From an uncultured Acidobacteriota bacterium (lineage in GTDB: Bacteria > Acidobacteriota > Vicinamibacteria > Vicinamibacterales > UBA2999), in contig CAVPVV010000003.1 of assembly GCA_963709325.1 (NCBI GenBank), forward strand, positions 1,827,889-1,891,888: 64,000 bases of DNA. The letters run 5' to 3'. This document shows, in pieces, positions 4,623-21,562 of the stretch (positions are counted from its first letter, which is position 1; each line of letters opens with the position of its first letter). The notes under the pieces were generated by a model, which was not told the DNA's origin, did not search any database, and saw only the letters and a program-made list of their open reading frames with translations. Made by a program: the position numbers and the translations under genes.

Positions 4623-4627
4623 TCGTT

Positions 4628-4669
4628 TTCCTGATTCCTGATTCCCGGTTTCCGGTTCCCAATTTCTAG
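4628..4669. repeat. Tandem heptamer array (TTCCTGA x2, TTCCCGG, TTTCCGG, TTCCCAA, TTTCTAG)
   Basis: Read directly. It fills the spacer between the MBOAT-remnant stop (4666) and the NYN start (4622). Confidence 0.85.
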
Positions 4670-5411
4670 AATTGGAAGTAGATGAAGTCGAGGGAGACGC
4701 GGCTCCTGAGCACCAGGATGAGCGTCACCATCACTCCCGCCGCCGCTGCCTGCAGCAGCGTCCGGCTGATGCTGGAAGGCCCCATGCCGTCCAGCGCGCC
4801 TCCGCGGCCGCCACCAGCCGCCAGCGCCGCTCGCGTCCAAGTGCCCAGAGATCGTCCAGGAACAACGGCACGCCCCCGGTGGCGGCCAGGACGAGCAGGT
4901 AGATGCCTACCTGCCGCTCCATCACCGTGCTCTCCGAGGGGGAGAGCACGAGCCACCGCCGCAGAAAGTCGGGGTTGGTCTCCCGGAAGAAGAGCCAGCC
5001 GACAATCGCCGCGGTGACGGTGAGGGCGATCTGAACGAAGGCGAGCGGACCAGGCCAGCGCTCGGGCAGCTTCAGCAGCGTCCCGACGGTCCGCGTGGCG
5101 ACTACTAGTGTGCCATGGTAGAGGCCCCAAAGCACGTAATTCCAGCTGGCGCCGTGCCACAGCCCCGAAACCAGGAAGGTGGCCAGGAGGTTGGCCTCGC
5201 GCTGCAGCGCCTCCACCCGGTTCCCGCCCAGCGGAATGTAGACGAAGTCGCGAAACCAGGTCGAAAGCGAGATGTGCCAGCGGCGCCAGAAGACGGTCGG
5301 GCTGTGCGCGATGTAGGGATGGTTGAAGTTGAGCACCAGCTCGAAGCCGAACCAGCGCGCCGTCCCGCGGGCGATGTCGGAATAGGCCGAAAAATCGGCG
5401 TAGATCTGCAA
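4666..5411 (-). pseudogene. MBOAT family (AlgI/DltB-like) O-acyltransferase, C-terminal remnant with a frameshift
   Basis: LQIYADFSAYSDIARGTARWFGFELVLNFNHPYIAHSPTVFWRRWHISLSTWFRDFVYIPLGGNR...GLWHGASWNYVLWG (frame of 4731..5645). The family-typical ending ...SLDFIYFQF* is in the frame of 4666..5478, so there is a frameshift at about 4800-4860. Homology stops at about 5411, and there is no N-terminal half or start codon. Confidence 0.75.
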
Positions 5412-5465
5412 CTGACGCCGCCGAGCCGGCACGGACGTTGCACAATGGACGGAATGAGGTGCCGC

Positions 5466-6068
5466 ATGCGAATCGCACGTCTTCAGAAGTGGTCGGCCGT
5501 TCTCGCCGTCGCCGCGGCCGCGACTGCGGCCTATGCCCAGGAGCCGTCGTCGCAGAAGCTCTTCGAGTCCGGCAAGTACGCTGAAGTCGCTGGACGGGGG
5601 GGTTCGGGTTCGCCCGAGGACCGCTATCTTGCCGCGCTCGCGCACCTGAAGGCCGGCAATGGCGACGCCGCGACCGGCGAGATGAGCCAGCTGCGCGACA
5701 GCGGACCTGACGATGCCTGGAAGCAGATCGGCGCGTCAGGCGCGGCCATGCTGCAGCACAACGACGGCGAGGCCGTCGAGGCCGGCAAGCGCGCCACGGC
5801 AGCGGGTGGCGACAACCCCTACGCGCACTACCAGCTCGGTCTTGCCGCCGCCGGCGCCAACGACTTCGCGCTGTCGGCGCAGGAGTTCGAGCGCGCCGCT
5901 GAACTGAAGCCGGACTTCGCCTACGCGCACTACTACGCCGGGCAGGCGTTCCACAAGCAGCGCAACATGGGGAAGGCTGCGGAGCACTACCGGCGCTTCC
6001 TGGACCTGGCGCCGGACTCGCCAGACCGTGCGGCTATTCAATCTATCCTGAGGACTCTTCGCGGGTAG
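5466..6068 (+). CDS. Secreted TPR-repeat protein
   Basis: Frame of 5115..6068. MRIARLQKWSAVLAVAAAATAAYAQ is a signal peptide. TPR-like helices follow (AHYQLGLAAAGANDFALSAQEFERAAELKPDFAYAHYYAGQAFHKQRNMGKAAEHYRRFLDLAP). Alternative in-frame ATGs lie at 5445 and 5454. Confidence 0.75.
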   Translation: MRIARLQKWSAVLAVAAAATAAYAQEPSSQKLFESGKYAEVAGRGGSGSPEDRYLAALAHLKAGNGDAATGEMSQLRDSGPDDAWKQIGASGAAMLQHNDGEAVEAGKRATAAGGDNPYAHYQLGLAAAGANDFALSAQEFERAAELKPDFAYAHYYAGQAFHKQRNMGKAAEHYRRFLDLAPDSPDRAAIQSILRTLRG

Positions 6069-6352
6069 TCCTAGCGGCCTTCCCAGGCGTCGCGCACGGT
6101 GCGAGCTACGAGGCATGGGCGCGGGTTCCCCCTCCCGCGAGTTCAGCCGGACAGTCCTCGCAGTGATGTTAAGAACGGAGCGCACAAAAAGGGCGTGCGC
6201 CGTCTTACCGGCGCCTCCTGTCTCGGCCGGCCTCGAGGTCGGGGACCGCGCCGCCACGCCTCATGGGCTCGCACGCAGCGCTCGTCGATCCGAGCGCCGT
6301 CCAACCGGCGACCTCGTGTGCCGGTCCGTCTGTCGTGGGCCCTCCGGCCCTG

Positions 6353-7825
6353 TTACCAGGCTCCCGCCCCGATCTCCAAGACAAACCGGAACTGATCGAC
6401 GCGCGAAAACCCCAGCGCCTGCAGGCCGGCTCGCAGTCCACCGAAGCTGTAGCCGAAGACGAAGGGCCGCATTCTGGCCGGCAGCTTGGCGCGAAAGCGA
6501 AAGCCGGTTTCCACGACGAGCTTCCAGTTCGGCGGAACGATCACGTCTACGTCCACCGGCCCGTGGTCGGTCTCAATGGTGCGGGTCTCCCGAGTCGTCA
6601 CGTACTGCCGTCGTCCGCCGCCCGAGACGTAGTAGTCGGCCCACCGCGACGCGGAAGGCGTGAACAGCAGCTCGCCCGTCGCGTCCCGCGGACTAACGGT
6701 CACGCGTGGAACGACCCAGCCCTCGCGCATGTCGAGACCCTTGAAGATGAGGGCGGCCCCGAGTGTTCGCTCCGTCACGCGCAAGCTCACCGACAACCAC
6801 GAATCGGGGAGGTTCAACTCGGACAGCGCCCGCTTCAGGCTCCCCGCCTGATACTGCGCCGGCAATTCGTCGCGGCCGAAGCGATGGTCCTCCATCATGT
6901 GGAGGAGGCGGGATGGCTGCGGCGAGATCGTCTCGCAGGCAGCGACGGTGTTCGCCGGACGAAGTTCGTACCGGCCGAGCGAGGGCTCCCCGTCGTGATA
7001 CGAGCGTTGCCGGTCGGTCACCTGGAGAAGCGGTGAATCAGGAGGGCGAAGCCGCATTGCGGCGACGCGCGGCTTGGTCATCTCAGAGGCATAGGCCGAG
7101 GACAGCAGTACTCCCTGGCCAAGCGAGTCGCGGACGCCCCAGGCGTCGTTGAGACGCTCAGTTACGTCGTAGCCCCGCATGTACGCCCCGTCGGCGTTGC
7201 GGTCGGGTGCGGTGCTGTGCTTGCCCTCTTCGACAAAGAGCGTGACCGGATACTTGATGTCCGGCCGCACTTTTAGTGTGTTCGAATACCAGCGGCTGCC
7301 GTGCGCGAGCCCCTCCACCGAGGCGAGCCGCACGCGGCGGCAGCCCGGGTCGCCTTCGAGCCAGACCTCGAACTCCGCGGTCTCGAGATCGTGAGGATGG
7401 CCACCCACGCCGAAGTCTTCCGAGTAATAGAAGTAATACTTGAGGATGAAAGACTCGACCTTATCGGCAAAGGCCGGATCGCCCTCCTCTGGCCGGGACA
7501 CCGGCGTGTCACCGTGATACGTGAGCTCGGTCACCTGGTAATAGACGACCGGGTGATCGGCGGCCGTGTCGCACGGATGCGCGCTGGGAATCGGCGGACG
7601 CCCCTCGGCCAGCAACGGCTCGTCGGCCGAGAACCAGAGCATGGGCGCCAGCAGCCCGGCGATCTCTCGCAGGCTGAGAGGCTCGCTTCCTTGCCAGATG
7701 ACGCCGGGTGTCGTGACTGCCGTCGCCGGCCCGCACGCGTTTGGGGACTGCGCGCGCGCGGGTGCCGGCGTCAGGCATGCGAGCGCGGCCAGTAGAGCAG
7801 CTACCCGGCGTTGCCAATCACTCAC
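6353..7825 (-). CDS. Hypothetical secreted protein, possibly outer-membrane
   Basis: Distal part of track ORF 6353..8662. GTG at 7823-7825 is preceded by GGAG. VSDWQRRVAALLAALACLTPAPARAQS is signal-like. The C-terminus is rich in beta-strand-like segments and ends ...FVLEIGAGAW. I recognise no family. Confidence 0.65.
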   Translation of the reverse strand: MSDWQRRVAALLAALACLTPAPARAQSPNACGPATAVTTPGVIWQGSEPLSLREIAGLLAPMLWFSADEPLLAEGRPPIPSAHPCDTAADHPVVYYQVTELTYHGDTPVSRPEEGDPAFADKVESFILKYYFYYSEDFGVGGHPHDLETAEFEVWLEGDPGCRRVRLASVEGLAHGSRWYSNTLKVRPDIKYPVTLFVEEGKHSTAPDRNADGAYMRGYDVTERLNDAWGVRDSLGQGVLLSSAYASEMTKPRVAAMRLRPPDSPLLQVTDRQRSYHDGEPSLGRYELRPANTVAACETISPQPSRLLHMMEDHRFGRDELPAQYQAGSLKRALSELNLPDSWLSVSLRVTERTLGAALIFKGLDMREGWVVPRVTVSPRDATGELLFTPSASRWADYYVSGGGRRQYVTTRETRTIETDHGPVDVDVIVPPNWKLVVETGFRFRAKLPARMRPFVFGYSFGGLRAGLQALGFSRVDQFRFVLEIGAGAW

Positions 7826-7975
7826 GACGTCTCCTGATCCGCCGACGCGTTTGGGAATGCGGGATGACCACTCGCTGGGAGCGCGCTCATGATCCCGAAC
7901 CTGCGATGCAGGGCATCGTAATGCCGAGGCGGCGAAGCCGATTCGCGGCCAGGTCACGGCCAAGGTTATGCCGAA

Positions 7976-8226
7976 GACCTGGGCACGCCGCTGGGCATCT
8001 TCGGGATGAGCTGGCTCGCGGTGGAAGGTGGTTGGGGCTCGCTCCCCGAGAAGGTGACCTGGCAGCACCTCTTCGGCGCGGCTAGTCTTGCCGGAATCGG
8101 ATTCACCATGTCGCTCTTCATCAGCGACCTGGCGTTCGCCGACGACCTGCTGATCCCACCGGTAAAGTCGGTATTCTGACTGGGTCAATAGCATCCGGGG
8201 TTCTGGGGTTCGCGGTGTTGGCGCGG
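7976..8226 (+). pseudogene. nhaA: Na+/H+ antiporter NhaA, C-terminal remnant (about 85 aa) with a frameshift
   Basis: DLGTPLGIFGMSWLAV..GSLPEKVTWQHLFGAASLAGIGFTMSLFISDLAF matches the last NhaA helices. There is a stop at 8177-8179. The continuation KVGILTGSIASGVLGFAVLAR is in another frame from 8164. No upstream NhaA sequence is present. Confidence 0.7.
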
Positions 8227-8267
8227 TCACTTCCCCGCTTGACAGTGACGAGACCGGCGTGTCCTGG

Positions 8268-9296
8268 TCAGTGTTCCGGCTCCGCCTCGATCTCGCGGTG
8301 CTCGTCGGCCAGTCTGCGCTTGCCGGCGTGTGTGAGCCAGGCGTCCTCCACGAACGGGTAAACGGCGGCAAGCGGCAACGAGACCAGCGCGCCGAGTACG
8401 CCGCCAAGCTCGGCCCCGACCAGGAACACGCCGACCACCGCGAGATCCGAGAGCTGCAGCTCGTGGCCGTAGACCTTGGGCGTAATGTAGTAGTTCTCGA
8501 TTGTGTTGTAGAGCACGTACAACCCGGCGACGGCGAACGCGACGGCCGGCGATACCAGCGCCCCGAGCAGCACCGCGGGAGCGGCGGAGAGAAAGAAGCC
8601 GACAATCGGCACCAGGTCGAACACCCCGGCGAGCACCGCGAGCAGCAGCGCCGCCGGCACACCGAGCAGCGCGAGCATCAGCCACGTGTAAAGAAACGCG
8701 AACATCGAGGTGATCACGTTGCCGCGCACGAACGCGACGATCACCTGCTGACTGCCGGCGGCCACCTCCTCCACCGCTGCTCGATGTTGCGCCGGCACGA
8801 ACGCCATCAGCCACTTGTAGGTGCGGCGTCCGTCGATCAGGAGGTACGTGGCTACGACAAGGGCGACGACCAGCGCCGCCAGCCCGCTGATCAGCATTCT
8901 GCCGAGCTGCGACAGCTGCGAACCGAGGCCTTCGTAGCCGGACAGCTGGCTGGCGATCTCCGGCGGCAGCCGGGCGACGATCGCGTCCTGGGTTTCCCCG
9001 ATTCGCGAGGTGAGCAGGCGCGATTCCTCCGACAACGATGCGCCCGACAGGTAGATCAAGGCAGCGAGCGCGGCCGCACCGAGCAGGATGATGGCCGGGG
9101 CCGTGAATCCGCGCCGGAGCCGCCGCTCTTCCAGCCACCGCACCACCGGATCCAGCGCCACCGCGAGGAACGCGCCGACGAGGAAGACCAATGCCCACTG
9201 CCAGAGGCGGAGCCACAGCCACACGGCGGTGACGACCGCCAACCCCCGCAGAAAAGTCCCGGTGGTGATCTCGACGCGACGACTGTCGCGGCTCAT
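8268..9296 (-). CDS. AI-2E family transporter (PerM/UPF0118)
   Basis: 342-aa polytopic ORF with ...FVRGNVITSMFAFLYTWLMLALLGVPAALLLAVLAGVFDLVPIVGFFLSAAP...LYNTIENYYITPKVYG, characteristic of AI-2E/UPF0118. Confidence 0.9.
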   Translation of the reverse strand: MSRDSRRVEITTGTFLRGLAVVTAVWLWLRLWQWALVFLVGAFLAVALDPVVRWLEERRLRRGFTAPAIILLGAAALAALIYLSGASLSEESRLLTSRIGETQDAIVARLPPEIASQLSGYEGLGSQLSQLGRMLISGLAALVVALVVATYLLIDGRRTYKWLMAFVPAQHRAAVEEVAAGSQQVIVAFVRGNVITSMFAFLYTWLMLALLGVPAALLLAVLAGVFDLVPIVGFFLSAAPAVLLGALVSPAVAFAVAGLYVLYNTIENYYITPKVYGHELQLSDLAVVGVFLVGAELGGVLGALVSLPLAAVYPFVEDAWLTHAGKRRLADEHREIEAEPEH

Positions 9297-9365
9297 TCGT
9301 GCGGATCAGGGAGCAAAGCGCGTTCCAGCCCGAACCTGCGCCCCATTCGCACCCGTCGGACCTGA

Positions 9366-12300
9366 TTAGAAGATGTGCCCTAACCCGAAGTAGAAGCGCC
9401 CGCTCCCCAGTTGGTTCGGTTGGCGCCCGGAGTTGGGGATGGTCGAGCCGGGGATGCCGAAATCAAGCCGCAGGAGGCCGATCGGCGAGCTCAGGCGCAG
9501 GCCGGCGCCGTAACCGAACTTCAGCTCGCCCCAGGAGAACGGGTAGGTTGGCCCGAACGTGTTTCCGATGTCGACAAACCCGACGCCGCGAACCCAGCCT
9601 CTCACCGGGAACCGCACTTCCTGGTTGAGGACGAGGAGCGACGTGCCTCCGGCGATGATCCCGCCGGGCGACCGCGGGCCCAGCGAGTTCTCCCCGTAAC
9701 CGCGGACCGAGGTCCCGCCGCCCGCCTCGAAGAGATCGACATCGGGCAGGCCAGTGAAATCGCCGCCGATGAAACGCCCGGCGAGAACAACCGGGCCGAG
9801 GGTCCGGAATGCGAACTGCTGGAGCAGGACGCGGCCGTAGTTCGAGTCGCCGCCCAGCCAACTCGCGGCGCGTTCGTAGGAGACCGAGGTGAACGTGCCC
9901 GAGGTCGGGCTCACCGGATCGGCGCGCCGATCCCAGAGCAGCGCCGTCCGCAGCTTGCCCACGTTGGTGACGAGATCGAGCGGGAACGGATCGAACGGAT
10001 CCGGTTCCGGATCGAAGTCGTGCAGGTGCTCGTAGCGGTAGCCGTAGGTGAGCTCGAGACCTCGCCGCCGCCGGTAGCGCTGCTCGAAGGTCAGGACCTG
10101 CTTGTCCTCCTTGTACAGCAGCAGCTGGTCCAGGCGGACGTTCTCGCTCGAGTTCGAGAAGAACACACCGGAGCGGAGGGGCAGCCCGAAGAAGCTGGCA
10201 GTCTGCAGGAACGCCTGCGACCGCTGCAGGTCACGAGCGAAGAGTCCGGCGGCGCCGCCGGTGATCGCCCGCCCGAACAAGTTCTGGTTGCGAATCTCGG
10301 CGATGCCGCCGAGGGTGATGTCGGTTGTATCGCTCGCGCCGCCGTCGCCGTGCTCGCGATCCGCCTGCAGCCCGTAGCGGAAGCGCCACGGCGGATACTC
10401 CTCCACCGAAACCCGCGCCTGCACCTGCTGGACGCCGTCGACCGGATCGCCGAGCGGCACCGGCTGGATGTCCACCGAACGGAACACGTTGGTGTCGTAC
10501 AGCCGCTTGCGGGCCAGCGACCACTCCTCGAGGTTGACCGGCTGGCCGATCCGCAGGTGCAGCGCCCGGCGGACAACGCCCTGGCGTGTCCGGGTCGCGC
10601 CGACGGTCTGCACGTCCTGCAACACCTGCTGCAGCCCTTCCGTCACCGTGATGCTGACGCCCACTTGTCCTGCGTCGTTTGCCGTTGCCGCGGTCGCGCC
10701 GACCTGAACGCTGTTGTAGCCGAGACGTCGATAGAAACGATCGACGCGGTCGCGTGCCGCCTCGACCAGCGACAGGGTGTAAGGCCCGCCCTGCGCGATC
10801 CCTGCAGCGCGCTCGGCCGCGGTTCGATGGCCGTCCGACACGCCGGACCACTGGATCTCGCCAATCGTCGAGCGGGTGCCTTCGTCGATCCTGATCGGCA
10901 GCACCGCCCGCCCGTTTTCGACGATTGGGGCATCGACCGTCACCTGCGCGTTCAGGAAGCCCTGCTGCCGATAGAAGGCCCGCAAGCTACCGGCCAGCGC
11001 TTCGTGGTCCATCCAGCCGTAATCGGACATGTTCCACTGCACGATCATCGTGTCGAGCTCGTTGCGGCTGACACCAGAGTTACCGATGAAGCGGAGCTCA
11101 CGACCGCCGAGCGCCGCGCCCGGCACAACCGTCAGATGCAGCGTCTTGAACTCGCTGCTCGACTCCATCGTCCCGTTCACGCTGGCGCTGACGAACCCCT
11201 GGGACAGCAGCTCGCCCTGGACGCGCGCTTCGGCGTCCTGGACAATGAAGCGGTCGAACACGCCGCGCGCCCACGACTGCTCGATCTCCTTGATGACGGT
11301 GTCGCGGACCGCGAAGCCATCGATGACGACTCGCGTCGCGGGACCGGGCGAGACGGTGTACACGACGTTGATGGCGCCCTCGCCGGCCTGATCGCGGCGA
11401 CCGCGAACCCGAGCCTCCACGTGGCCGCCCTCGACGTAGCGCTTGGTCAGTCCGTCGAGGTCCTGCTGCCATTTGTAGTAGTCGAATGGCTCGCCGGGCT
11501 TGAGCTTCAAATCCTTGCGGACCTGCTCGGCCGTGAACGGCGCATACGATCCCTCGAGCAACACCTCTTTCACGTTCAGGACCACGCGCTCGGCAGCGAC
11601 CCTCCGGGCCGCATTCCCTCCGAAGGTGATCTGGTGCCGAACGCCGAGTCCCTGCGTGCCGTCGTCGCGCGAGATGCCGCGAATCTCGAGATTGGTGAGC
11701 GGATAGTAGCTCACGAGGATCGTGGTCTTGCCGCTCTCGGCCAGGTTCTGAGACAGCGTGAACTCGACTTGCTCGCTGAGGCGCTTGGAAAGCGTGAGCC
11801 GCGTCACCGGGTCCTGGTCCTGCAGGAGGGCGCCGGGGTCCTCGCGGAACTCGTCGGTGACGACGTCGCCGCGATCGATGCGCAGCGCGTCGAGGCCGAT
11901 CTGCCGGCCGGTCGCGCCGAGTAGATCTGACGAGAGCAGGGTGAGCGCGTTGGCACCGGTGGCGCTGCCGCCGAGCAGCGCCATCGCGATTTCCTCCTGC
12001 GAGACCTCCGGCCGATCCGGCGCCGTCAGGTCGAACTCGAACCGATCCGGCGTGCCGCTCACCGAGAGCGTCACGGTACCGATGTTGCCGACGCGCGTCT
12101 CGGCCTGGATGTTGAGATCCGGCTGGATCTTCGTGAGATCGGTGAACGAAATATTGCCGGCGGTGAGGGTGAACGTACGGCCGGCCGCGTAGATACGGCC
12201 GCCCTCCTGAAGCGTGGCCTGGCCCGACATGCCCGGACGAGCCGCGGTTCCCACAATCCGCACCTGGGCGGCACCCTCGAAGCGGCCGTAGTTGTTGTCG

Positions 12301-13586
12301 ACGCGGACGTCTTCCACCGTCGTGACCGTGACGTTCAGCCGCAGGTTCTCGAGCGCCGACGGCTCGGCGGCGGCGCCGCGAACCGTGGTCCCGGCGTTGG
12401 CCCTGGCCAGAGCCGCCAGGCTGATCGGCGAGGTGTAAGAACTCCGCTGCACCCGGACGTCGCCGCGGAGAATCGGCGGCGTCTCGCCCACGTCGTAGGT
12501 GAGCAGCGCGTCGATCTCGCTGCGAAGCCCGCGCGGGTACTCCACCGCCATCCCGAGCACCTGGACGTAGACCTCGCCGTCGACGATCTCGGTGCCGTGC
12601 AGGACGAAGCCGCCGTCGATCGTCAGGTTCCCGCCGTTTGCCGATCCGCTCAGGCCACGCAGCTCGATGCGGTTTGCCGAGAGCGCGATCGGGCCAGACA
12701 GGTCCGACAGGACAATGCGCGGTGAGGTCAGGGCCACCTCGGCGTCGGCCAGCGTCACCGTGCCGGACAGATCCGGGTTGCTGGTCGTGCCGCCAACCCG
12801 CAGGTTGACGTCGGCGGTGCCATCGACACCGAGGCTGGGCACGAATGCCGACAGCACGCGCAGCACGGCCACGCCTTCGACCGTGAGGTTGAGCGCGGGA
12901 GGGCCGGAAGACACGTCCACCGATCCGCCGAGCGCCAGCTCGCTCCCCACCGCCTCCCACACCACGTCGTCCATGGTGATGAGCCCGCTGTTGACGGAAA
13001 TGGTTGTCGGTCGCGTCTGCTTCACCTCGACGCCGGCCGAATCGAAGGTCGCCGAGTCCAGCTCGAAGCGGCCGACCGCGCGCATCGGGTCGAGCTCCGG
13101 GATCTTCGCGTCGCCCTTGCCGGTGAACGTCCCTCCAGCCTTGGCGGCATCGACGCGGCCGCTGATCGAATGGAGCGTCAGCGACTCCCCCCTCACGCCG
13201 GCGCTGGCGTTGAGATTCGTGAAGGCCACGCTGCTGCCGGCTTCGACGTAGCCGTTGGTGATGTCGAACGAGGCGATGAGGTCCTCACGCCGGTTGGTGC
13301 CGTAGAGCGTCGCCTCGAGCCATCCGCGCGTGGTGACGTTGGCTTGGAGCCCGAACGCGCGCGCCGCGGTGACGACGTCCGAGACTTCGCCGTGGAAGTA
13401 GCCCGAGAACACGGTGTTGTCACGGCCGGCCCAGGTGCCCTCGGCGTTGAGCGTGCCGCTGCCGATTGTCGCGGTGAGATCCTTCACGGTGACCTCGCCG
13501 GGTTGCCATGACACCGATGCCGGCGAGCTCAAGTTGACGGGCACACCGGCCAGCTCTGTCTGCACCTGATGCAGATTGGCGAGCAC
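9366..13586 (-). CDS. TamB-like C-terminal (DUF490) region fused in frame to a POTRA + Omp85 (BamA/TamA-like) beta-barrel
   Basis: Residues 1-657 are TamB/DUF490-like and end ...LEIRGISRDDGTQGLGVRHQITFGG (last Gly codon 11616-11618). After 10 linker residues come POTRA-like repeats and a barrel with GGGTSVRGYGENSLGP, ending ...GRFYFGLGHIF. There is no stop and no signal peptide at the junction. Confidence 0.85.
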   Translation of the reverse strand: MLANLHQVQTELAGVPVNLSSPASVSWQPGEVTVKDLTATIGSGTLNAEGTWAGRDNTVFSGYFHGEVSDVVTAARAFGLQANVTTRGWLEATLYGTNRREDLIASFDITNGYVEAGSSVAFTNLNASAGVRGESLTLHSISGRVDAAKAGGTFTGKGDAKIPELDPMRAVGRFELDSATFDSAGVEVKQTRPTTISVNSGLITMDDVVWEAVGSELALGGSVDVSSGPPALNLTVEGVAVLRVLSAFVPSLGVDGTADVNLRVGGTTSNPDLSGTVTLADAEVALTSPRIVLSDLSGPIALSANRIELRGLSGSANGGNLTIDGGFVLHGTEIVDGEVYVQVLGMAVEYPRGLRSEIDALLTYDVGETPPILRGDVRVQRSSYTSPISLAALARANAGTTVRGAAAEPSALENLRLNVTVTTVEDVRVDNNYGRFEGAAQVRIVGTAARPGMSGQATLQEGGRIYAAGRTFTLTAGNISFTDLTKIQPDLNIQAETRVGNIGTVTLSVSGTPDRFEFDLTAPDRPEVSQEEIAMALLGGSATGANALTLLSSDLLGATGRQIGLDALRIDRGDVVTDEFREDPGALLQDQDPVTRLTLSKRLSEQVEFTLSQNLAESGKTTILVSYYPLTNLEIRGISRDDGTQGLGVRHQITFGGNAARRVAAERVVLNVKEVLLEGSYAPFTAEQVRKDLKLKPGEPFDYYKWQQDLDGLTKRYVEGGHVEARVRGRRDQAGEGAINVVYTVSPGPATRVVIDGFAVRDTVIKEIEQSWARGVFDRFIVQDAEARVQGELLSQGFVSASVNGTMESSSEFKTLHLTVVPGAALGGRELRFIGNSGVSRNELDTMIVQWNMSDYGWMDHEALAGSLRAFYRQQGFLNAQVTVDAPIVENGRAVLPIRIDEGTRSTIGEIQWSGVSDGHRTAAERAAGIAQGGPYTLSLVEAARDRVDRFYRRLGYNSVQVGATAATANDAGQVGVSITVTEGLQQVLQDVQTVGATRTRQGVVRRALHLRIGQPVNLEEWSLARKRLYDTNVFRSVDIQPVPLGDPVDGVQQVQARVSVEEYPPWRFRYGLQADREHGDGGASDTTDITLGGIAEIRNQNLFGRAITGGAAGLFARDLQRSQAFLQTASFFGLPLRSGVFFSNSSENVRLDQLLLYKEDKQVLTFEQRYRRRRGLELTYGYRYEHLHDFDPEPDPFDPFPLDLVTNVGKLRTALLWDRRADPVSPTSGTFTSVSYERAASWLGGDSNYGRVLLQQFAFRTLGPVVLAGRFIGGDFTGLPDVDLFEAGGGTSVRGYGENSLGPRSPGGIIAGGTSLLVLNQEVRFPVRGWVRGVGFVDIGNTFGPTYPFSWGELKFGYGAGLRLSSPIGLLRLDFGIPGSTIPNSGRQPNQLGSGRFYFGLGHIF

Positions 13587-15990
13587 AGTGGGGGGGGCTT
13601 TGCCCTGGATCGCACCGTTCAGCGGCGGCGTCGAGGCTGACTTGTCCAGAGATCTGGGTCGGGAGCGCGTTCAGAAGCGGCGCGATCCGCGTCAGGTCGA
13701 GCCGGTCGACGACCGCGGCGGCCCGGTAATCGTAGGGAGCGGCGGTCGCAATGGTGCCGTTCGCGGAAATCCCGAGCGCGGCGGTCTGCAGGCTGAACCT
13801 CGCGATTTGCCCAAGCAGTTCCACGTTCAGCTTGCCGCCGCCGGTGATCTCGGGCGCGTCGCCCTGCCAGAGATTGAACGTGAACGCGCCGTTCCCCATC
13901 GGCTTGTCGAAGGTGCCGGTGCCGGCAAAGCTGCCTTCGAGCGACACGCGCGTCTCGTCGTCGTCAATCACGGTCCTGCGCCAGGCCAGGTTGGCAGCGT
14001 CGAGACGCGCGTCGTACGAGCGGTCCAGGCCGAAACGGCCGCTGACCGTCACCTGCCCCTCGTCCTTGTGCAGCACGAGTTGCGGGACGAACAGGGCACG
14101 CTCCTTGAAGGTGACCGTTCCTTCCAGCCCCGTGTAGGCATCGCCGGCGAACTCGAGCGCCGGGCTCGACACCGTCGTGGTGATCACGGGATCGCTCAGC
14201 GTCCCTTCGAGCCTGGCGTGAGCATCCAGCGTGCCCTCCGCCTGCCACTGCTCGGGCACCTGGGTCTGGAGCACTCGAATGTCGGGGACGGTCGCATCCA
14301 GAGCTCCGCCAAGCGTGCGGTGTGTGAGGTCGATGGAAACGTGCCCCTCTGCGCCGGTGCCCTCGCGGTGCACCGACAGCGGCGACACCTCGATGGCGGC
14401 ACGGCTCGCTTCGACGGTGGCATCGACAGAAGAAATCCCGACGCCTGGCACGTCGAACGCGGGCGCATGCGCCACGACGGTGGCTCGCGGGTCGGCGAAG
14501 GTGCCATCGAGCACCGCCTCGGCGTCAATCGCACCCGAGGAGTCGCGGACTGCGTCCGGGATGCGGATGCCGAACGGCGCGAGCGCGGTGTCGGCCGCGG
14601 CCAGGCTGGCGATTGTGACCGTCGCCGGCCCGCGCACGGTCGATCGCGATGCGGTCTCGGCGTTGAGTTGTCCTTCGGCCTTGCCGTTCACGGTGATTCC
14701 GCTGGATCGAAGGTTGTGCACCAGCGTCCACGCGGCACCGCTGATCGCCGCCGTGACTGTGCCGGCCAGCGGCGTGGCGCCGCGTTCCACGATCGGCGCG
14801 AGATCGGTCTTGACCGACAGCGACCGGCGCGGACCGGTCGCGAATCGGCCGTCGCCATCGAGCCGGGCGCCAATCGGCTGAACGGCGAGGTTGGCGGACC
14901 GCATCATCGCGCGCGCATCGACGCCGCGCCACGTCGCCGTCACGGTGACCGGCGCGTCGCCGAACGGGACGTCGACCGCGGCGTTCACCTCGCCGCCGCT
15001 CTTCGGCGAGGCGATGACCCGGTTCACGAGCAGCCGGGAGCGATCCAGCATCAGCTCACCGCTGGCGGTCAGCTGTTCCTCGGTCCCGACGGTGAGGGCC
15101 GGCGCGTCGAAGCGGGTGACGATCTCGATCGCGTTGAGCGCCCCGTTGATGGTCCCGCGAACGTGCGTGGTGCCCGCCACCGGAATCGGCGGCGGCGCCC
15201 AGGTGGCGGCGCGGGCCACGTCCACCTGCCCGTCGAACCCGAGCTCGAGTGACATTGCGTCGAGCACGCGATTGAGGCGGCCCGACAGGTTGAGGCTGCC
15301 CATGCCCGTAACCACTGGCATGTCCTCGAGCGCGACGTTCCGGCCGTCGAAGGCGACCCGCGTCTCGAGCGGCTCGACCCGCAGCGTTCGATCCCGCCAC
15401 TGCACGTCGATGCCGCCGCGGACCGCAAACGGACCCGTGGCGCCGGTGAGCTCGCCAACGAGGCCGCGGGCGAGCGCCGAGTCGATGCCGCTGGCGACAA
15501 TGCGGAGCGGCATCGAACGGTCGTCGTACAGAAACGCGAAGTCGGTGAGATGCAGGCCGCGCAGCGCCAGCGATCGCGGCGGTTCAGGCGGCGGCCCGCC
15601 GCTGCCGCCGGGAAGGTTGCTATCGCCGGCTTCGTCGATCGCGATCGTGAAGCGCCCGCCCTCCACCGCCACGTCGTCAAGGACAAGGCGGCCGGTGTAG
15701 GTCTCGAGCGGCACGTTGACGTGAACGCGCGCGGCGGTGAAGAAGGGGCGATCGGCGTCGTCGCGTGCCGCGAGGCGGACATTGATGAGCGTGACGCCGC
15801 CGGACAGCAGATTGTAGGTCAGGTTGTCGGCGGAAAGGGTCAGGCTGAAACGCGATTCGAGCGTGCTGATCACCCAGGCAAGAGCCCGGGCGCGCACCGG
15901 CGGCGTATGCAGGATCGCGACGAGCAGCACCACCAGGGTCGCCACGGCGGCGGCCCCGATGGCCAGTCCCCGTCGGAGGCGTGACCCCAT
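13587..15990 (-). CDS. TamB/AsmA-like protein, N-terminal membrane-anchored part. It is the same gene as 9366..13586, split by a frame change at a G8/C8 tract.
   Basis: MGSRLRRGLAIGAAAVATLVVLLVAILHTPP is the anchor, followed by long beta-rich repeats. Track ORF 13420..15990 loses sense after ...QISGQVSLDAAAE.., exactly where the frame of 9366..13586 becomes meaningful (..TVLANLHQVQTELAGVPVNL). Confidence 0.8.
13590..13597. repeat. G8 (coding-strand C8) homopolymer at the TamB frame junction
   Basis: gagcacagtg gggggggctt. Removing one base joins ...DPGQSPP to TVLANLHQVQ... in one frame. Confidence 0.8.
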
Positions 15991-16084
15991 TTATGAATTC
16001 TACCGGGCACCCGGATGGTTCCGGCCTCGGCCATTCCCGTTCGAACGCCTCCTCTGCTAGCATCCGCAGGTGGAGGATCTGTTC

Positions 16085-16630
16085 ATGCGTGTGAAAGCTC
16101 TGCTCAACGTGGGGCTCGCGGCGGTCCTTGGCGTGCTGTCCAGCGCAACTGGACGAGCCCAGGCTCCTGCAGTCGAGCTCAAGGTGGGAGACGCCGCTCC
16201 GGCGTTCTCGCTGCCGGCGTCGGATGGCAAGACCCACAGCCTTGCCGATTCCAGAGGCAAGACCGTCATCCTGGCCTGGTTCCCCAAGGCCTTCACTGGT
16301 GGTTGAACCGCCGAGTGCAAGTCGCTCCGTGAGAGCGGCGCCCTGATTCGGCAGTACAACGTCGACTACTACATGGTGAGCGTGGACACGCTCGAGGACA
16401 ACACCAAGTTCGCGCAGACCCACGAAGCCGACTACCCGATCATGAGCGATGTCACCAAGGCCGTCGCCAAAGCCTACGGCGTTCTCGGCCCCGGCGACCT
16501 CGCCCGGCGCTGGACGTTCTACATCGGTCCTGACGGCAAGATCCTCCACATCGATAGAGCCGTCTCGCCCTCGACTTCGGGCCCGGACATGGTGAAGCAG
16601 CTCGGAGAGCTGAACGTCCCGAAGAAGTAG
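16085..16630 (+). CDS. Exported peroxiredoxin (Bcp/AhpC-TSA family), candidate selenoprotein with in-frame UGA at 16304-16306
   Basis: Track ORFs 16070..16306 and 16373..16630 are in the same frame with no other stop between them. Read-through gives ...GKTVILAWFPKAFTGG[TGA]TAECKSLRESG..., which places TGA where the family has the peroxidatic Cys (FPKxFTxGCT). GGAGG lies 8 nt before the ATG at 16085. The signal peptide is MRVKALLNVGLAAVLGVLSSATGRAQA. Confidence 0.75.
16321..16339 (+). promoter_or_regulatory. Candidate bacterial SECIS hairpin
   Basis: GUCGCUC-CGUGA-GAGCGGC forms 7 bp including one G-U pair. The loop contains G and U, and the stem starts 14 nt after the UGA. Confidence 0.4.
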
Positions 16631-16632
16631 CC

Positions 16633-16780
16633 GGGAAACACGAAGGGCACGAAGTTCACGAAGAAGTGCAGGGCATGGACGAGGCAGACAGCTGCTTCGC
16701 CCTTGCCCTTGTTGCTCTCTGTCGGGACCGCAGTATTCCCTTCGTGCTCTCCGTGTCCTTCGTGCCCTTCGTGTTGTCCC
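16633..16780. repeat. Long imperfect inverted repeat built from CACGAAG / CTTCGTG units
   Basis: AACACGAAGGGCACGAAG (16637-16654) is the perfect reverse complement of 16758-16775. Further CACGAAG / CTTCGTG copies lie inside the arms. It spans the prx-to-hydrolase spacer. Confidence 0.85.
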
Positions 16781-16795
16781 TGACGCGTTCTTGAC

Positions 16796-18841
16796 GTGGG
16801 TAACGCCGACAGCTATCGTCCGGGCGTGAATCGTCTTGCGCTCCTCACCTTCACAGTAATTACCGGCGTGCTCGTGCGCGGGGCGGCTTTGGCACCGCCC
16901 GACCTCGCCCCCGGCGTTCGCGTCGAGAAGAACCAGCCGGCGAGGATGCGCGACGGTGCAGTGCTGCGGGCCGACGTCTATCGCCCGGCCGCGCCGGGCA
17001 GTTATCCGGTGCTCCTCCAGCGCACGCCCTACTCGAAGAACGACGAGGAGGCGCCGCAGCGCTTCAGCGCGATCGCTGCGAAGGGGTTTATCGTTGCCGT
17101 CCAGGACACGCGCGGCCGGTACATGTCCGACGGTGTCGCGGTCCCGCACGACGAAGCACAGGACGGCTACGACTCGGTCGAGTGGGCGGCAAAGCTCCCT
17201 GGATCGAACGGACGCGTCGGAATGTTCGGCGGCAGTTATCTGGCCACCACGCAGCTCGAGGCGGCGACGACGCAGCCGCCGTCGCTGAAGGCGCTGTTCC
17301 CGGCCTCGTCGTACGCGCGGCGCCACGACATGGTGTTCCAGGGCGGCGCGTTCTATCTGAGTGATGGGCTCTCGTGGAACCTGGGGCAGGCCGTCGACGT
17401 ACGCCGCCGCGTGCTCACGCCGGCAGTGAATCGGGACGGCCCGATCGGCCTGGACGCCGAGCAACGCCAGACGCTGCGCAACACGTGGTACTGGCACCTG
17501 CCGCTCAAGTCGATGAACGAGTTGGACCTGCGGCGGTTCGCCCCAGGCTACTTTCAAATGCTCGATCACCCGGGCTTCGACGGCTTCTGGGACCCCGCCG
17601 ACATCCAGAAGCGGCACGACAAGTTTCTGGTTCCCGCCTTTCACCTCACCGGCTGGTACGACACGCTCCTCACCGGCACGCTCAAGAACTTCACCGGGCT
17701 CCGCGCCCGCGCCGCGAACGAAACGGCGCGCAAGTACCAGCGGCTGGTGATCGGGCCGTGGACGCACGCCCGGCCGACGCTCAAGAGCACGGCAATCGGC
17801 GAGGTGTCCTACGGTCCGAACGCCGGGTTCGATTCCGAAGGCGCGATGGTGCGCTGGTTCGAGTACTGGCTGAAGGACGGCGACCGCGCGGTCCTCGACA
17901 CCGCTCCGGTCCGCCTCTTCGTGATGGGCGCCAACGAGTGGCGGAACGAGCAGGAGTGGCCGCTGTCGCGTGCGAAACAGACTCCTTATTACCTCTCGAG
18001 CGGCGGCCGAGCCAACACCGCGGCCGGCGATGGCCTGCTGAGCATCAGCCCGCCGGGCGCGAGCTCCAGGCCCGACACCTACACCTACGACCCGAACGAT
18101 CCCGTGCCGACCGGCGCCAGCGGCGGCTACTCGCGCAACCCCGCGGATCAGCGCGGCATCGAGCAGCGCCCCGACGTGCTCGTCTACACTACCGCCCCAC
18201 TGTCCGAGGACATCGAGGTTACCGGGCCGCTGGCGGTGACGATATGGATTCAGTCGAGCGCGAAGGACACCGACTTTACCGGGAAGCTGGTTGACGTCTT
18301 CCCGGACGGCACGGCACGGCCGCTGGCCGATGGCATCCTGCGGGCGCGGTATCGAAGCGGTCCGGCGACGCCGACCCTGCTGACACCTGGATCGCCGACC
18401 GAGATCACGATCGATCTCGGCGCCACGTCGAACCTGTTCAAAGCGGGTCATCGCGTCAGGCTCGAGGTTTCGAGCAGCAACTTCCCCCGCTTCGACCGCA
18501 ACCCGAATACCGGTGGCGTGTTCGGCGAAGACCGCGACGTGCAGCCGGCGGAACAGGCGATCCTGCACGACGCGGCGCATCCGTCGCGGCTGATTCTCCC
18601 GGTGATTCCGCGCCAGGGCGGAGCTCGAACGGCGGCTTCGCCGGGCGCGATCGACGGCGCGGTCGGGACATCGGGTACGCAAGCCGCTCAGCCTGCGGCA
18701 AACAGTTCATTCCTCGTCGTCAACGCTCGGCTGATCGACGGGACGGGTTCAGCCGGGGCGCCAGGCGGCGGTTCGCGTGGCAAACGGGCGCATCACCGAG
18801 GTCGGTGCGCTCACGCCGGCGCAGAACGAACAGGTGATTGA
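16796..18841 (+). CDS. CocE/NonD family (S15, X-Pro dipeptidyl-peptidase-like) hydrolase. The ORF continues without a stop into the N-terminus of the next enzyme.
   Basis: A likely GTG start at 16826 gives the signal-like NRLALLTFTVITGVLVRGAALA. Family matches include RDGAVLRADVYRP...YPVLLQRTPYSK...DTRGRYMSDG...GMFGGSYLATTQ. The hydrolase domain ends at about 18613 (..LILPVIPR). A 30-aa Ala/Gly/Thr/Gln linker follows, then SSFLVVNARLIDGTGSAGAPGG. Confidence 0.85.
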   Translation: MGNADSYRPGVNRLALLTFTVITGVLVRGAALAPPDLAPGVRVEKNQPARMRDGAVLRADVYRPAAPGSYPVLLQRTPYSKNDEEAPQRFSAIAAKGFIVAVQDTRGRYMSDGVAVPHDEAQDGYDSVEWAAKLPGSNGRVGMFGGSYLATTQLEAATTQPPSLKALFPASSYARRHDMVFQGGAFYLSDGLSWNLGQAVDVRRRVLTPAVNRDGPIGLDAEQRQTLRNTWYWHLPLKSMNELDLRRFAPGYFQMLDHPGFDGFWDPADIQKRHDKFLVPAFHLTGWYDTLLTGTLKNFTGLRARAANETARKYQRLVIGPWTHARPTLKSTAIGEVSYGPNAGFDSEGAMVRWFEYWLKDGDRAVLDTAPVRLFVMGANEWRNEQEWPLSRAKQTPYYLSSGGRANTAAGDGLLSISPPGASSRPDTYTYDPNDPVPTGASGGYSRNPADQRGIEQRPDVLVYTTAPLSEDIEVTGPLAVTIWIQSSAKDTDFTGKLVDVFPDGTARPLADGILRARYRSGPATPTLLTPGSPTEITIDLGATSNLFKAGHRVRLEVSSSNFPRFDRNPNTGGVFGEDRDVQPAEQAILHDAAHPSRLILPVIPRQGGARTAASPGAIDGAVGTSGTQAAQPAANSSFLVVNARLIDGTGSAGAPGGGSRGKRAHHRGRCAHAGAERTGD

Positions 18842-20117
18842 CGCCGGTGGGCTCGTCCTCGCACCGGGCTTCATCGACGCCCACAACCACTCGACCGACG
18901 GACTGCTCACCGAGCCGCTCGCCGCGAGCCAGGTGTCGCAGGGCATCACCACGGTGTTCGTCGGGCAGGACGGCAGCTCGCCGTGGCCGATTGCCGATTA
19001 CCTCGGAAAGCTGCGCGCCGCACCGGCGGCGCTGAACGTGATCACCGGCGTCGGGCACGCGACCGTGCGCCAGATGGTCATGGGCGAGGACTACAAGCGG
19101 GTCGCGAGCCCCGACGAGATCGCGAAGATGGAAGCGCTCGTCGACCAGGGCATGCGCGAGGGCGCGATCGCGCTGTCGAGCGGCCTGGAATACGAGATCG
19201 GCAGCTATTCGAACACCGACGAACTGGTGGCGCTGGCCCGCGTCGCCGCGAAGCACAACGGCATCTACATCTCGCACACTAGGGACGAAGCGGACAAATC
19301 GTTCGATTCGATCCGCGAGTTGATTGCGATCGCCGAGCGCGCGAAGATTCCGGCGCAGAACACCCACATCAAGCTGGGGACGATCGGCGTGTGGCACAAG
19401 GCGGACGAGGCCATTCGGCTGCTGGATCAGGCCCGCGCGCGGGGTCTCGACGTCACCGCCGACGTCTACCCGTACAACGCGTGGTCTTCGACCATCACGG
19501 TGCTGATCCCGAGCAAGCGCTACGACGATCCCGAAGCGGTGACCCAGGGGCTCAACGACGTGGGCGGCGCCGGGAATATCCTGATCACCCGGCACGCCGC
19601 GCACCCGGACTACGAGTTCAAGACGCTCGCCGACGTCGCGAAGACCCAGAACATCACGCCGGTGGAGGCGTTCATCCAGATCGTCAAGGACGGGGGCGCC
19701 TCGGTGGTCTGCACCTCGATGGTCGACGACGACATCCGTGCGTTCGTGCGATGGCCGCACGCCATGTTCTCGAGCGACGGCGGCATCGGCATGCGCCACC
19801 CGCGCGGCGCCGGCTCGTTCCCGCGTGTGCTCGGCCTGTTCGTGCGCGAGCGGAAGTGGCTGACCCTGGAAGAGGCGATCCGCAAGATGACGTCGCTGAC
19901 GGCAGCTCGGCTCTCGCTGCCTGACCGCGGCACGGTGAAACCTGGAATGTGGGCCGACCTGGTGCTCTTCGATCCGGTGACGATCATCGATCGCAGCACC
20001 TTCAGCGACCCGTTCGTGCTCTCGACCGGCGTCAGGAAGGTCTGGGTGAACGGCGGCCTGGTGTGGGATGAGGATCACACGGCCGGAGGGCGGCCCGGGA
20101 GAGTGTTGGGGAGATAG
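18777..20117 (+). CDS. N-acyl-D-amino-acid deacylase (D-aminoacylase) family amidohydrolase. Its true N-terminus lies in the upstream ORF frame, with a frameshift at about 18765-18772.
   Basis: VANGRITEVG...VIDAGGLVLAPGFIDAHNHS...GITTVFVGQDG...SGLEY...ISHTRDE...HIKL...TADVYPY...FSSDGG. The preceding beta-strand LVVNARLIDGTG is encoded from 18704 in the CocE frame. Confidence 0.85.
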   Translation: MANGRITEVGALTPAQNEQVIDAGGLVLAPGFIDAHNHSTDGLLTEPLAASQVSQGITTVFVGQDGSSPWPIADYLGKLRAAPAALNVITGVGHATVRQMVMGEDYKRVASPDEIAKMEALVDQGMREGAIALSSGLEYEIGSYSNTDELVALARVAAKHNGIYISHTRDEADKSFDSIRELIAIAERAKIPAQNTHIKLGTIGVWHKADEAIRLLDQARARGLDVTADVYPYNAWSSTITVLIPSKRYDDPEAVTQGLNDVGGAGNILITRHAAHPDYEFKTLADVAKTQNITPVEAFIQIVKDGGASVVCTSMVDDDIRAFVRWPHAMFSSDGGIGMRHPRGAGSFPRVLGLFVRERKWLTLEEAIRKMTSLTAARLSLPDRGTVKPGMWADLVLFDPVTIIDRSTFSDPFVLSTGVRKVWVNGGLVWDEDHTAGGRPGRVLGR

Positions 20118-20146
20118 CGCCAGCGAGTCTGGCAGCTGGAGGTGGT

Positions 20147-21529
20147 ATGCGGACAGTGCGTCTCTCGGCGGTCGTCCTAATCGCAGCACTCTCCGGCGCG
20201 GCGACGTTGGCGCAAGGGGCGCGGGCGGGCGTCATGGTGTTCGAGGGCGCGCGGATTATCGACGGCAATGGCGGGCCGCCGATCACCAACGGCGCACTGG
20301 TCGTGCAGGACGGGCGCCTCGTTGCGGTCGGCGCACGCGAGGCCGTGCAGGTGCCGGCGGGCGCGACCCGGGTGGACGTCAGCGGCAAGACGATCATGCC
20401 GGCGATGATCAACGCCCACGTCCACATGGGCTACGAGGGCTACACCACGTGGGGCGCTCGCAACCACACGCCCGAGAACCTGCTCGATCACCTGCAGCGT
20501 GAAGCGTTTTACGGCGTCGCGGCCGCGACCTCGGTCGGCAGCAGTCCGACGGAGATGTCTCTCCAGTTCCAGAAGGATCAGCAGGCCGGCAAGTTTCCAC
20601 CCGTGGCCCGCTACCTGTTCATGCCGGGCATGGCCCCGCCCAACGGCGGCCCCGATCACATCCTCCGCGTCGCCACCAACGAGCTCCACGTCGTCAACGA
20701 GGTGACCACGCCGGCGGAGGCGCGGGCAGCAGTCCAGCGGATGGACAAGCAGGGCATCCGTCACGTCAAGCTGTGGTTCGACGATCGCGGCAACAGCTAT
20801 CCGAAGCTGTCGCCCGAGGTGATGCAGGCAATCATCGACGAAGCGCACGCCCTTAAGATGACGGTCCACGCCCACGCCATCCAGATCGCCGACCAGAAGG
20901 CGGTGGTGGCCGCCGGCGCCGACGTCCTCGTTCACATGGTCCAGCGCCAGCCGCTCGACCAGGAATTCCTCACCCTGCTTCGCGAGAAGCGGCCGTATTG
21001 GGCGACCGTCATCTCGCTCGGCGACCCGGTCGAGGTGTGCAACAAGGATCCGTTCTTCGAGGAGGCGATGCCGCCGTCGGTCGTCGCCAAGATCAGGGCG
21101 ACGATGGATCGGGCGTCGCTGGTTCCAAGCTGCGGCCCGCTGCCGTCGACTGCCTCGGACCGGGAGCGGCAGATGGCGATCAACTTCCCGAAGATGATCG
21201 AGGCGGGCGTGAAGTTGGTACTCGCCACCGACACCGGCATCCATCCGGGACACACGTTCGGATCCGGCGAGCACGTGGAGCTCGCGCGGTGGGTGCAGCT
21301 CGGGCTGCCGACGAGCGAGGCGATCGTGGCCGCGACGAAGACGCCGGCCGAGCTGATGGGGCTCACCGACCTCGGCACGCTGGCGCCGGGCAAGCGCGCC
21401 AGCTTCATCGTGCTGGATGGGAACCCGCTGGAGAACATCCGCAGCACGCGGAAGATCTCCGACGTCTACCTGGATGGCGTCAAGTTCGACCGCGAGGCCG
21501 TCCGCGCGAAGTGGAAGGCGCTGAAGTAG
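20147..21529 (+). CDS. Exported amidohydrolase family protein
   Basis: Signal peptide MRTVRLSAVVLIAALSGAATLAQG. Family matches include FEGARIIDGNG...TIMPAMINAHVHMG...VHAHA...LVLATDTG... Confidence 0.9.
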   Translation: MRTVRLSAVVLIAALSGAATLAQGARAGVMVFEGARIIDGNGGPPITNGALVVQDGRLVAVGAREAVQVPAGATRVDVSGKTIMPAMINAHVHMGYEGYTTWGARNHTPENLLDHLQREAFYGVAAATSVGSSPTEMSLQFQKDQQAGKFPPVARYLFMPGMAPPNGGPDHILRVATNELHVVNEVTTPAEARAAVQRMDKQGIRHVKLWFDDRGNSYPKLSPEVMQAIIDEAHALKMTVHAHAIQIADQKAVVAAGADVLVHMVQRQPLDQEFLTLLREKRPYWATVISLGDPVEVCNKDPFFEEAMPPSVVAKIRATMDRASLVPSCGPLPSTASDRERQMAINFPKMIEAGVKLVLATDTGIHPGHTFGSGEHVELARWVQLGLPTSEAIVAATKTPAELMGLTDLGTLAPGKRASFIVLDGNPLENIRSTRKISDVYLDGVKFDREAVRAKWKALK

Positions 21530-21562
21530 CGACGCCAGCCGGAGGCAGCTGGAGCCGCGCCG

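Follow-up and report, generated by a model that had tools for sequence, protein, structure and literature searches.

To our knowledge, TamB and its BamA-like barrel partner are separate proteins in all bacteria studied to date. In Escherichia coli's translocation and assembly module (TAM), cryo-electron microscopy (cryo-EM) shows that the last strand of TamB pairs with strand 1 of TamA to form a hybrid barrel (PMC12800296), a state that a second cryo-EM study argues to be stable and to be the functional one in vivo (PMC13119328), and DUF490 has been proposed to dock on Omp85 and thereby to fasten a bridge-like lipid transporter at the outer membrane (PMC12800296; PMC13119328). Whether TamB and Omp85 associate stably or transiently is debated, with half of the particles undocked in one cryo-EM study, and evolution of the TAM from BamA-TamB pairs has been proposed in Acidobacteria (Heinz 2015). 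Here we analyse a minus-strand gene in a 64,000-nt window (the whole stretch of DNA under study, whose numbering is used for all positions below) from an uncultured Acidobacteriota bacterium of the Vicinamibacterales, in which a TamB-type protein and an Omp85 partner are encoded as one polypeptide. Based on its architecture, conservation, selection and fold matches, we propose with a probability of about 0.8 that it represents a conserved acidobacterial gene for a single-chain, covalently tethered TAM, for which export, docking and lipid transfer are predicted.

We found no description of such a single-chain architecture in the full-text literature, including the papers by Heinz, the TAM review of 2024 and the structures of 2026, with subscription-only papers lying outside this coverage; the preliminary description of the locus likewise knew of none. 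The sequences themselves are public under automatic database names only, such as 'TamB domain-containing protein [Vicinamibacterales bacterium]' at NCBI and 'BamA/...TamB' at JGI.

Architecture of the fused gene

As found in the window, the gene is covered by two long overlapping frames: an upstream one of 856 aa (15990..13420, ATG start) and a downstream one of 1,406 aa (13586..9366), which stays open upstream to 13670 and closes with a TAA stop at 9366-9368. The downstream frame contains the entire junction between the two halves. The TamB end reads ...GISRDDGTQGLGVRHQITFGG, with its last Gly codon at 11616-11618, and continues without a stop into NAARRVAAER..., the uninterrupted frame across the junction being ...GISRDDGTQGLGVRHQITF-GG-NAARRVAAERVVL-NVKEVLLEG.... 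Upstream of it, the Pfam TamB/DUF490 model PF04357 matches residues 312-652 of the 1,406-aa frame almost end to end (91.1 bits, where the cut-off is 22.4; positions 3-378 of the 381 in the model). Downstream of it lie the POTRA domains and then the Omp85 barrel, which covers the full PF01103 model (positions 1-325, 122 bits) at residues 1102-1406 and carries GGGTSVRGYGENSLGP as its loop-6 motif. A DUF490 domain at the extreme C-terminus with an aromatic final residue is a defining trait of TamB (Heinz 2015); in the fusion the domain is internal, its conserved Phe being followed by Gly-Gly, the linker and 749 further residues. At the other end the upstream frame opens with MGSRLRRGLAIGAAAVATLVVLLVAIL at ATG 15990 and contains a 19-residue hydrophobic segment, conserved across the family, of the kind that serves TamB as an N-terminal signal anchor; in the family alignment (A1) H28 is invariant and P30 nearly so.

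The junction itself offers no sign of a second export signal. Scanning 109 family members from 5 residues before to 60 residues after it, we detected no stretch resembling a signal peptide: the maximal 15-residue Kyte-Doolittle mean averages 0.98 (highest value 1.61), against 2.76 for the N-terminal anchor, taken as the maximum within the first 45 residues. The cleavable signal peptide that BamA and other Omp85 proteins carry is absent from the fused barrel, and a promoter and terminator scan of 9100-16900 yielded nothing above chance and nothing at the junction. Judged by its sequence, the fused barrel lacks any export signal and has no independent way out of the cytoplasm. The residues flanking the join are strongly conserved, with R1451, H1452 and G1457 invariant and F1456 94% conserved among 109 aligned sequences.

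Structure prediction with AlphaFold2 (AF2) recovers both halves in one chain. The model of the C-terminal 1,107 residues (mean predicted local distance difference test score, pLDDT, 82; predicted template modelling score, pTM, 0.68) presents, in order, beta-taco strands, three to four short helices, six strands ending at the conserved Phe, a low-confidence linker, five POTRA domains and 16 barrel strands; the POTRA domains appear as five beta-alpha-alpha-beta-beta units at fragment residues 372-764, and phmmer aligns this region with E. coli BamA residues 103-423. Foldseek aligns some 800-840 columns of the model with full-length BamA chains (E 2e-41). A separate model of the last 657 residues of the TamB half (pLDDT 85) is nearly all strand, with residues 530-563 helical and six strands spanning 567-651, and its best Protein Data Bank (PDB) matches are E. 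coli TamB chains, namely 9xdc_B (E 7e-12) and 9xdd_B (template modelling (TM) score 0.61) from the TamAB cryo-EM structures and the TamB beta-taco crystal structure 5vtg (TM score 0.69, root-mean-square deviation 2.4 Å). With a beta-taco, helices and six terminal strands, the predicted structure has the features that define the TamB fold. The fold search alone made this connection: phmmer against PDB sequences matched BamA and TamA and no TamB chain.

Neither half belongs to the proteobacterial TAM proteins at the level of equivalog models. The TamB half reaches 22-23 bits against NF047952 (NCBIfam TamB, cut-off 825) and is not the proteobacterial equivalog, while the Omp85 half scores 70 bits against the TamA model NF047950 (cut-off 625) and has five POTRA domains versus three in TamA. 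The BamA model TIGR03303 (cut-off 297 bits) comes closer, with 208 bits for the window protein, 274-285 for a second fused type described below and 139 for the family member P0198.

These results bear out most of what the preliminary description had read from the letters, namely the N-terminal anchor, the TamB end with its last Gly codon and NAARRVAAER continuation (here placed in a frame open from 13670), the VRGY-type loop and ...FGLGHIF terminus, the missing signal peptide at the junction and the resulting lack of an independent route out of the cytoplasm for the barrel. The outcome that it had named as refuting did not arise in the profile searches, which order DUF490 before and POTRA and Omp85 after the junction.

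Conservation, paralogues and the split operon

To our three scans of species-representative genomes, which together comprise 190 distinct loci, the junction presents itself as a single-frame alignment in 183 cases (77/79, 77/80 and 29/31 in the respective scans). No locus among the 190 has a stop, a signal peptide or a split at this position, and most of the remaining ones run into a contig end or have a frameshift at another place in the gene. More than 100 homologues of about 2,175-2,219 aa came out of a database search, with 100% query coverage and 77% to 41% identity, all of which carry PF04357, PF07244 and PF01103, and a search with P0198 added more. When a junction-centred 500-residue query was run against 1.84 billion cluster representatives (50% identity), 412 were found at E <= 1e-30, and the best 150 all align across the junction, at identities down to 28%. 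The earlier reading of a TamB-type protein joined to its Omp85 partner in one polypeptide is thereby upheld, and the same uninterrupted junction recurs in related genomes, including a 95%-identical relative, the orthologues being fused rather than split.

The window-type fusion occurs in Vicinamibacterales, including metagenome-assembled genomes (MAGs) labelled Luteitalea. A second fused type, about 27% identical to it, occurs in MAGs that bear the labels Bryobacterales, Bryobacteraceae, Solibacter, Solibacteraceae and Sulfopaludibacter, as well as in one Aminicenantes-labelled MAG and in Vicinamibacterales; the Bryobacterales- and Solibacter-labelled MAGs we take to belong to the class Terriglobia. 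At least 183 loci, from two or more classes of Acidobacteriota, have the fusion conserved. Complete chromosomes with the gene include OY970174.1, OZ244172.1 and OY761556.1. We found it in no cultured isolate, all named matches being MAGs (Luteitalea sp., Solibacter sp., Bryobacter sp.).

Some MAG labels stand out. The gene occurs in MAGs labelled Bifidobacteriaceae (L006, L008, L011, L024, L031, L073), Acidimicrobiia (L023, L032, L050, L055, L059) and cyanobacteria (L053, L070), and these labels are probably wrong because a TamB-Omp85 gene is diderm-specific and the copies are 38-57% identical to those of Vicinamibacterales. Internal frame breaks are a further feature of the collection, falling at scattered positions and all in MAGs of the MFD series (L010, L036, L051, L053, L057, L059, L060, L066, L069, L075), a pattern consistent with indel errors rather than decay. 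The large 'contig_N' contigs of that series are presumably typical of long-read assembly.

Several MAGs encode both fused types on different contigs of similar GC content, the two proteins being collinear from end to end (L044, 2,287 aa, and L210, 2,313 aa, are 26.9% identical over 2,354 columns). Full-length pairs of fused paralogues are found in L044+L210, L053+L221, L045+L141/L209, L038+L170 and L056+L151/L220. Since both collinear types occur together in this way, the sequences suggest that fusion may have preceded duplication, with bin mixing possible for short-read bins. Such genomes would possess two single-chain TAM-like systems, besides any split pair. Neither the window nor the flanks of 159 loci contain a second Omp85 or TamB gene.

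A split counterpart does exist within the class. The nearest stand-alone relatives are only 24-33% identical. One of them, P0355, a 972-aa protein with an NCBI cluster member from Vicinamibacterales, passes the TIGR03303 cut-off of 297 bits (315 bits), as does P0353 (322 bits), and a Vicinamibacteria MAG contains a copy at 72% identity to P0355. On its contig (L232, GC 0.69) the BamA gene directly follows a separate TamB gene of 1,368 aa, whose product ends ...NEDRTYALDVRVRHAF-stop (...DVRVRHAF) and whose stop codon overlaps the BamA start (TGATG); the BamA protein opens with a classical signal peptide, MRVGRAVVLTALLTAPPAALA|QS. This operon resembles the fusion in class, gene order, the TamB end (...DVRVRHAF, compared with ...GVRHQITF) and the BamA-type barrel, and differs from it in having two genes with a TGATG overlap, a signal peptide on the barrel and a BamA score above the equivalog cut-off. 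Because the split TamB ends ...RVRHAF-stop, the conserved Phe of the fused ...RHQITF-GG corresponds to the former last residue of TamB. The split pair is about 25% identical to either fused type and hence a paralogue rather than an orthologue; it is the kind of arrangement from which a fusion would arise by loss of a stop codon and a signal peptide. The 972-aa BamA of L232 is some 170 residues longer at its N-terminus than the fused Omp85 and may be the seven-POTRA acidobacterial BamA of Heinz 2015.

The broken window copy and rival explanations

The preliminary description had read 9366-15990 as encoding one chain of roughly 2,200 aa. The chain length holds, but the region is not a single open reading frame (ORF): the window copy is divided between its two overlapping frames by a frameshift that the description did not mention. 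The 856-aa frame ends in an Arg/Cys-rich tail, ...ERCDPGQSPPHCARQ..., which fits none of its relatives and looks out of frame, the true reading past 13623 being LNGAIQGKAPPTVLANL... in the other frame, and tblastn with the closest full-length homologue places the switch near 13600-13620. The relevant comparison is with L001, a locus from a Vicinamibacterales MAG that is 94.8% identical at the nucleotide level over 7.1 kb and carries an intact ORF of 2,207 aa. L001 reads GACGCCGCC-CTGAAC against GACGCCGCCGCTGAAC in the window, which is the sole indel inside the gene in this alignment, and removal of the extra base yields a 2,207-aa product 96% identical to that of L001. The site at 13580-13600 that had been singled out for read mapping does lie close to the break, but the break itself is at 13623; 26 nt downstream of it the C8 homopolymer at 13590-13597 is in frame, and the close relative reads GAGCCCCCG. 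This C8 run is a likely trap for read-level checks. Programmed frameshifting at 13623 was considered and rejected, as there is no slippery site and L001 lacks the base.

The ratio of nonsynonymous to synonymous substitution rates (dN/dS) relative to L001 is 0.148 before the break, 0.096 in the rest of the TamB part and 0.132 in the Omp85 part, and values of 0.10-0.15 on either side indicate purifying selection on both. The extra base is most simply explained as an assembly or sequencing error, or else as a very recent mutation. The alternative for this particular genome, that the insertion is real and leaves either a pseudogene or a two-piece product, with an 856-aa anchored stub being exported and a 1,406-aa part left devoid of an export signal, is a serious though rather unlikely one. 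The frames are genuinely broken in the window, the insertion falls in a GCCGCCGC repeat rather than a long homopolymer, and few other indels separate the window from L001, which argues against a generally error-ridden assembly; yet dN/dS is as low after the break as before it, the relative at 95% identity has an intact gene, and broken copies elsewhere are concentrated in MFD-series MAGs at scattered positions that resemble assembly error. That the junction is an artefact joining two adjacent genes can be regarded as effectively refuted: beyond the general possibility and the existence in the class of a split tamB-bamA pair whose stop and start overlap, nothing speaks for it. The in-frame junction, with a conserved RH-x-x-x-F-G motif and no signal peptide, is common to 183 independent loci that come from many studies and assemblers, and the 150 top cluster representatives all span it.

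Two further readings accept the fusion as real and assign it a different fate. A periplasmic protease might cut the linker and thereby convert a precursor into separate TamB and Omp85 proteins at 1:1, an idea to which we give little credence. The linker ranks lowest in both conservation and modelling confidence, and it is rich in Arg, Ala and Pro; however, the two fused types have no cleavage motif in common, only F-G(-G) being kept between wholly different linkers, and the split paralogue uses a normal signal peptide, such that separate export was available and yet was not kept. Far less probable still is a type Vd autotransporter, in which the TamB-like region would be the surface passenger of a C-terminal POTRA-Omp85 unit. 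PlpD does have an N-terminal domain, POTRA and an Omp85 barrel in one chain (PMC4104836; PMC11116518), but instead of a cleavable signal peptide, a passenger enzyme and a single POTRA domain, the fusion has a 19-residue hydrophobic signal anchor conserved with stand-alone TamB, a TamB-like region whose fold matches TamB structures up to and including the Omp85-docking end, and five POTRA domains.

Against a single-chain TAM weigh, besides the frameshifted window copy and possible cleavage in the linker, several further observations. Profile comparison of the family with E. coli TamB by hhalign gives a probability of 13%, with a collinear alignment (E. coli 864-1195) that stops before the six terminal strands. 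Stand-alone BamA is found in the class, and among the genomes scanned none was shown to hold both it and the fusion. Docking of the last TamB strand on barrel strand 1 in cis is inferred rather than seen: in two AF2 runs the six TamB strands are modelled about equally confidently with and without the barrel, and the models therefore carry no information on strand-barrel packing. Mean-field direct coupling analysis of the six strands versus the barrel (284 sequences, effective number 174) worked only partly in its control, adjacent strands accounting for 13 of the 25 strand-strand pairs within the top 50, and for the last TamB strand and barrel strand 1 it returned the weak pairs 350-770 and 354-770 at ranks 99 and 144 of 101,936, both through residue 770, a signal too faint to establish docking.

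Table 1. Positions of the fused gene, its parts and the split operon (window numbering unless a locus is named)
Feature	Position	Strand	Evidence or remark
Whole TamB-Omp85 fusion gene	9366..15990	-	2,207 aa after deleting extra base 13623; as found, two frames
Signal-anchor helix LAIGAAAVATLVVLLVAIL (residues 9-27), then conserved HTP motif	15910..15966	-	hydropathy maximum averages 2.76 across family
TamB-like periplasmic region: long beta-rich beta-taco, helices, first five of six terminal strands	11655..15909	-	weak DUF748, YhdP and TamB matches; AF2/Foldseek
One extra base (G, minus strand), shifts the frame	13623..13623	-	alignment to L001
Out-of-frame tail of upstream frame, ...ERCDPGQSPPHCARQ...*, not real protein	13420..13622	-	relatives read SLDAALNGAVQGDAPPAVLANL here
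Pfam TamB/DUF490 domain, complete to its C-terminal end	11631..12653	-	PF04357
Last TamB strand QGLGVRHQITF, beta-signal-like, ends in conserved Phe, no longer C-terminal	11622..11654	-	AF2 strand at fragment residues 346-356
Linker GGNAARRVAAERVVL (~15 residues), not hydrophobic, less conserved, without stop or start signal	11577..11621	-	AF2 pLDDT <50 at fragment residues 362-368
Five POTRA domains	10398..11576	-	PF07244, 114 bits; AF2; Foldseek; phmmer
16-strand Omp85 barrel, loop-6 VRGY at 9696-9707, C-terminal ...FGLGHIF	9369..10388	-	PF01103; AF2
Split tamB-bamA operon, one-base stop/start overlap	L232:2346-9370 (ENA ERZ27251535 k141_1990695); also L230		

None of the genes around the fusion is related to envelope biogenesis. 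On the same strand, 70 nt downstream, is a gene for an AI-2E family transporter, and divergent upstream is one for an S15 X-Pro dipeptidyl peptidase. Synteny is kept only in close relatives, these two neighbours recurring in just one to three loci, and the context therefore offers no functional clue. Farther out, 16796-25288 is a run of hydrolase and transporter genes (the S15 X-Pro dipeptidyl peptidase, two amidohydrolases, a beta-lactamase-family protein and a MacB/FtsX-type permease) that is syntenic only in the closest relatives L001, L002 and L012. On the other side, no ORF in the roughly 2.5 kb of 5736-8267 passes a codon-position GC filter, and a 769-aa minus-strand ORF at 6353..8662 has no Pfam match and overlaps the AI-2E transporter gene. 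At 3009-4724 (minus) a 571-aa protein combines an NYN ribonuclease domain with a weak OST-HTH/LOTUS match, its gene adjoining that of an MBOAT acyltransferase (4731-5735).

Proposed working and comparison with known systems

In the single-chain TAM that we favour, an uncleaved signal-anchor helix at the N-terminus would hold the protein in the inner membrane, and some 1,430 residues of TamB-type beta-taco, ending in a complete DUF490, would bridge the periplasm. Following Phe-Gly-Gly and a linker of about 15 residues, the predicted BamA-like Omp85 would contribute five POTRA domains and, in the outer membrane, a barrel of 16 strands. Sec would export the whole chain from its N-terminal anchor and a separate beta-barrel assembly machinery (BAM) would insert the C-terminal barrel, after which the retained beta-signal-like strand ...GVRHQITF could dock onto strand 1 of its own barrel, as TamB does on TamA in E. 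coli. With docking of that kind, the arm of five POTRA domains would close into a loop between two neighbouring strands. The protein may serve as a permanently tethered conduit for lipid, and possibly protein, between both membranes.

A more specific version of this model, which we advance only tentatively and consider possible rather than probable, is a single-chain hybrid barrel in which the TamB beta-signal strand stays permanently on strand 1 of its own barrel, the POTRA arm is a closed loop and the lateral gate is constitutively occupied. Were this the case, the Omp85 could not cycle as an insertase and would serve a bridge-like lipid transporter only as its outer membrane dock and lipid exit, the gene family would constitute natural evidence for a stable hybrid barrel as the working state of the TAM, and two fused systems and a split tamB-bamA pair could share one cell.

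A fusion that is kept under purifying selection in at least two Acidobacteriota classes, and that was apparently duplicated after fusing, would show that function is compatible with permanent 1:1 tethering. It fixes two ends that are neighbours, the C-terminus of TamB and the N-terminus of POTRA1, and provides a single-gene target for structural work on the whole trans-envelope bridge. For specialists in outer membrane biogenesis, it bears on the debate over stable versus transient docking and adds a layer, so far overlooked, to the evolution proposed for the TAM from BamA-TamB pairs in Acidobacteria (Heinz 2015).

Among described systems, the E. coli TAM shares with the fusion the signal anchor, the beta-taco bridge, a DUF490 that includes helices and six terminal strands, a last strand resembling a beta-signal and with an aromatic end, a 16-strand Omp85 with POTRA domains, the 1:1 stoichiometry and the fold matches. 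It differs in that the fusion is one polypeptide with TamB before Omp85, whereas E. coli tamA precedes tamB, in having three POTRA domains in TamA where the fusion has five, in the lack of a signal peptide on the fused barrel, and in the scores of the fusion, which fall far below the TamA and TamB equivalog cut-offs. Omp85 proteins with an extra N-terminal domain in the chain are known from PlpD (type Vd) and the Omp85-WD40 fusions (Heinz and Lithgow 2014; PMC4104836), but there the addition is a patatin passenger or a BamB-like propeller rather than a bridge partner, and the other end has no inner membrane anchor. In chloroplasts the C-terminus of TIC236 binds TOC75 directly, the two being, unlike the fusion, separate proteins with a role in protein import. 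TIC236 is an inner-envelope-anchored TamB homologue and TOC75 its allied outer membrane Omp85 homologue (10.1101/2021.04.25.441383). The hybrid BAM-TAM of Borrelia burgdorferi partners TamB with a five-POTRA BamA rather than with TamA, and TamB C-terminal strands have been modelled as completing the BamA barrel (PMC13382580; PMC11361582); in that bacterium, in contrast to the fusion, the two are separate genes and proteins, and BamA is both sole and essential.

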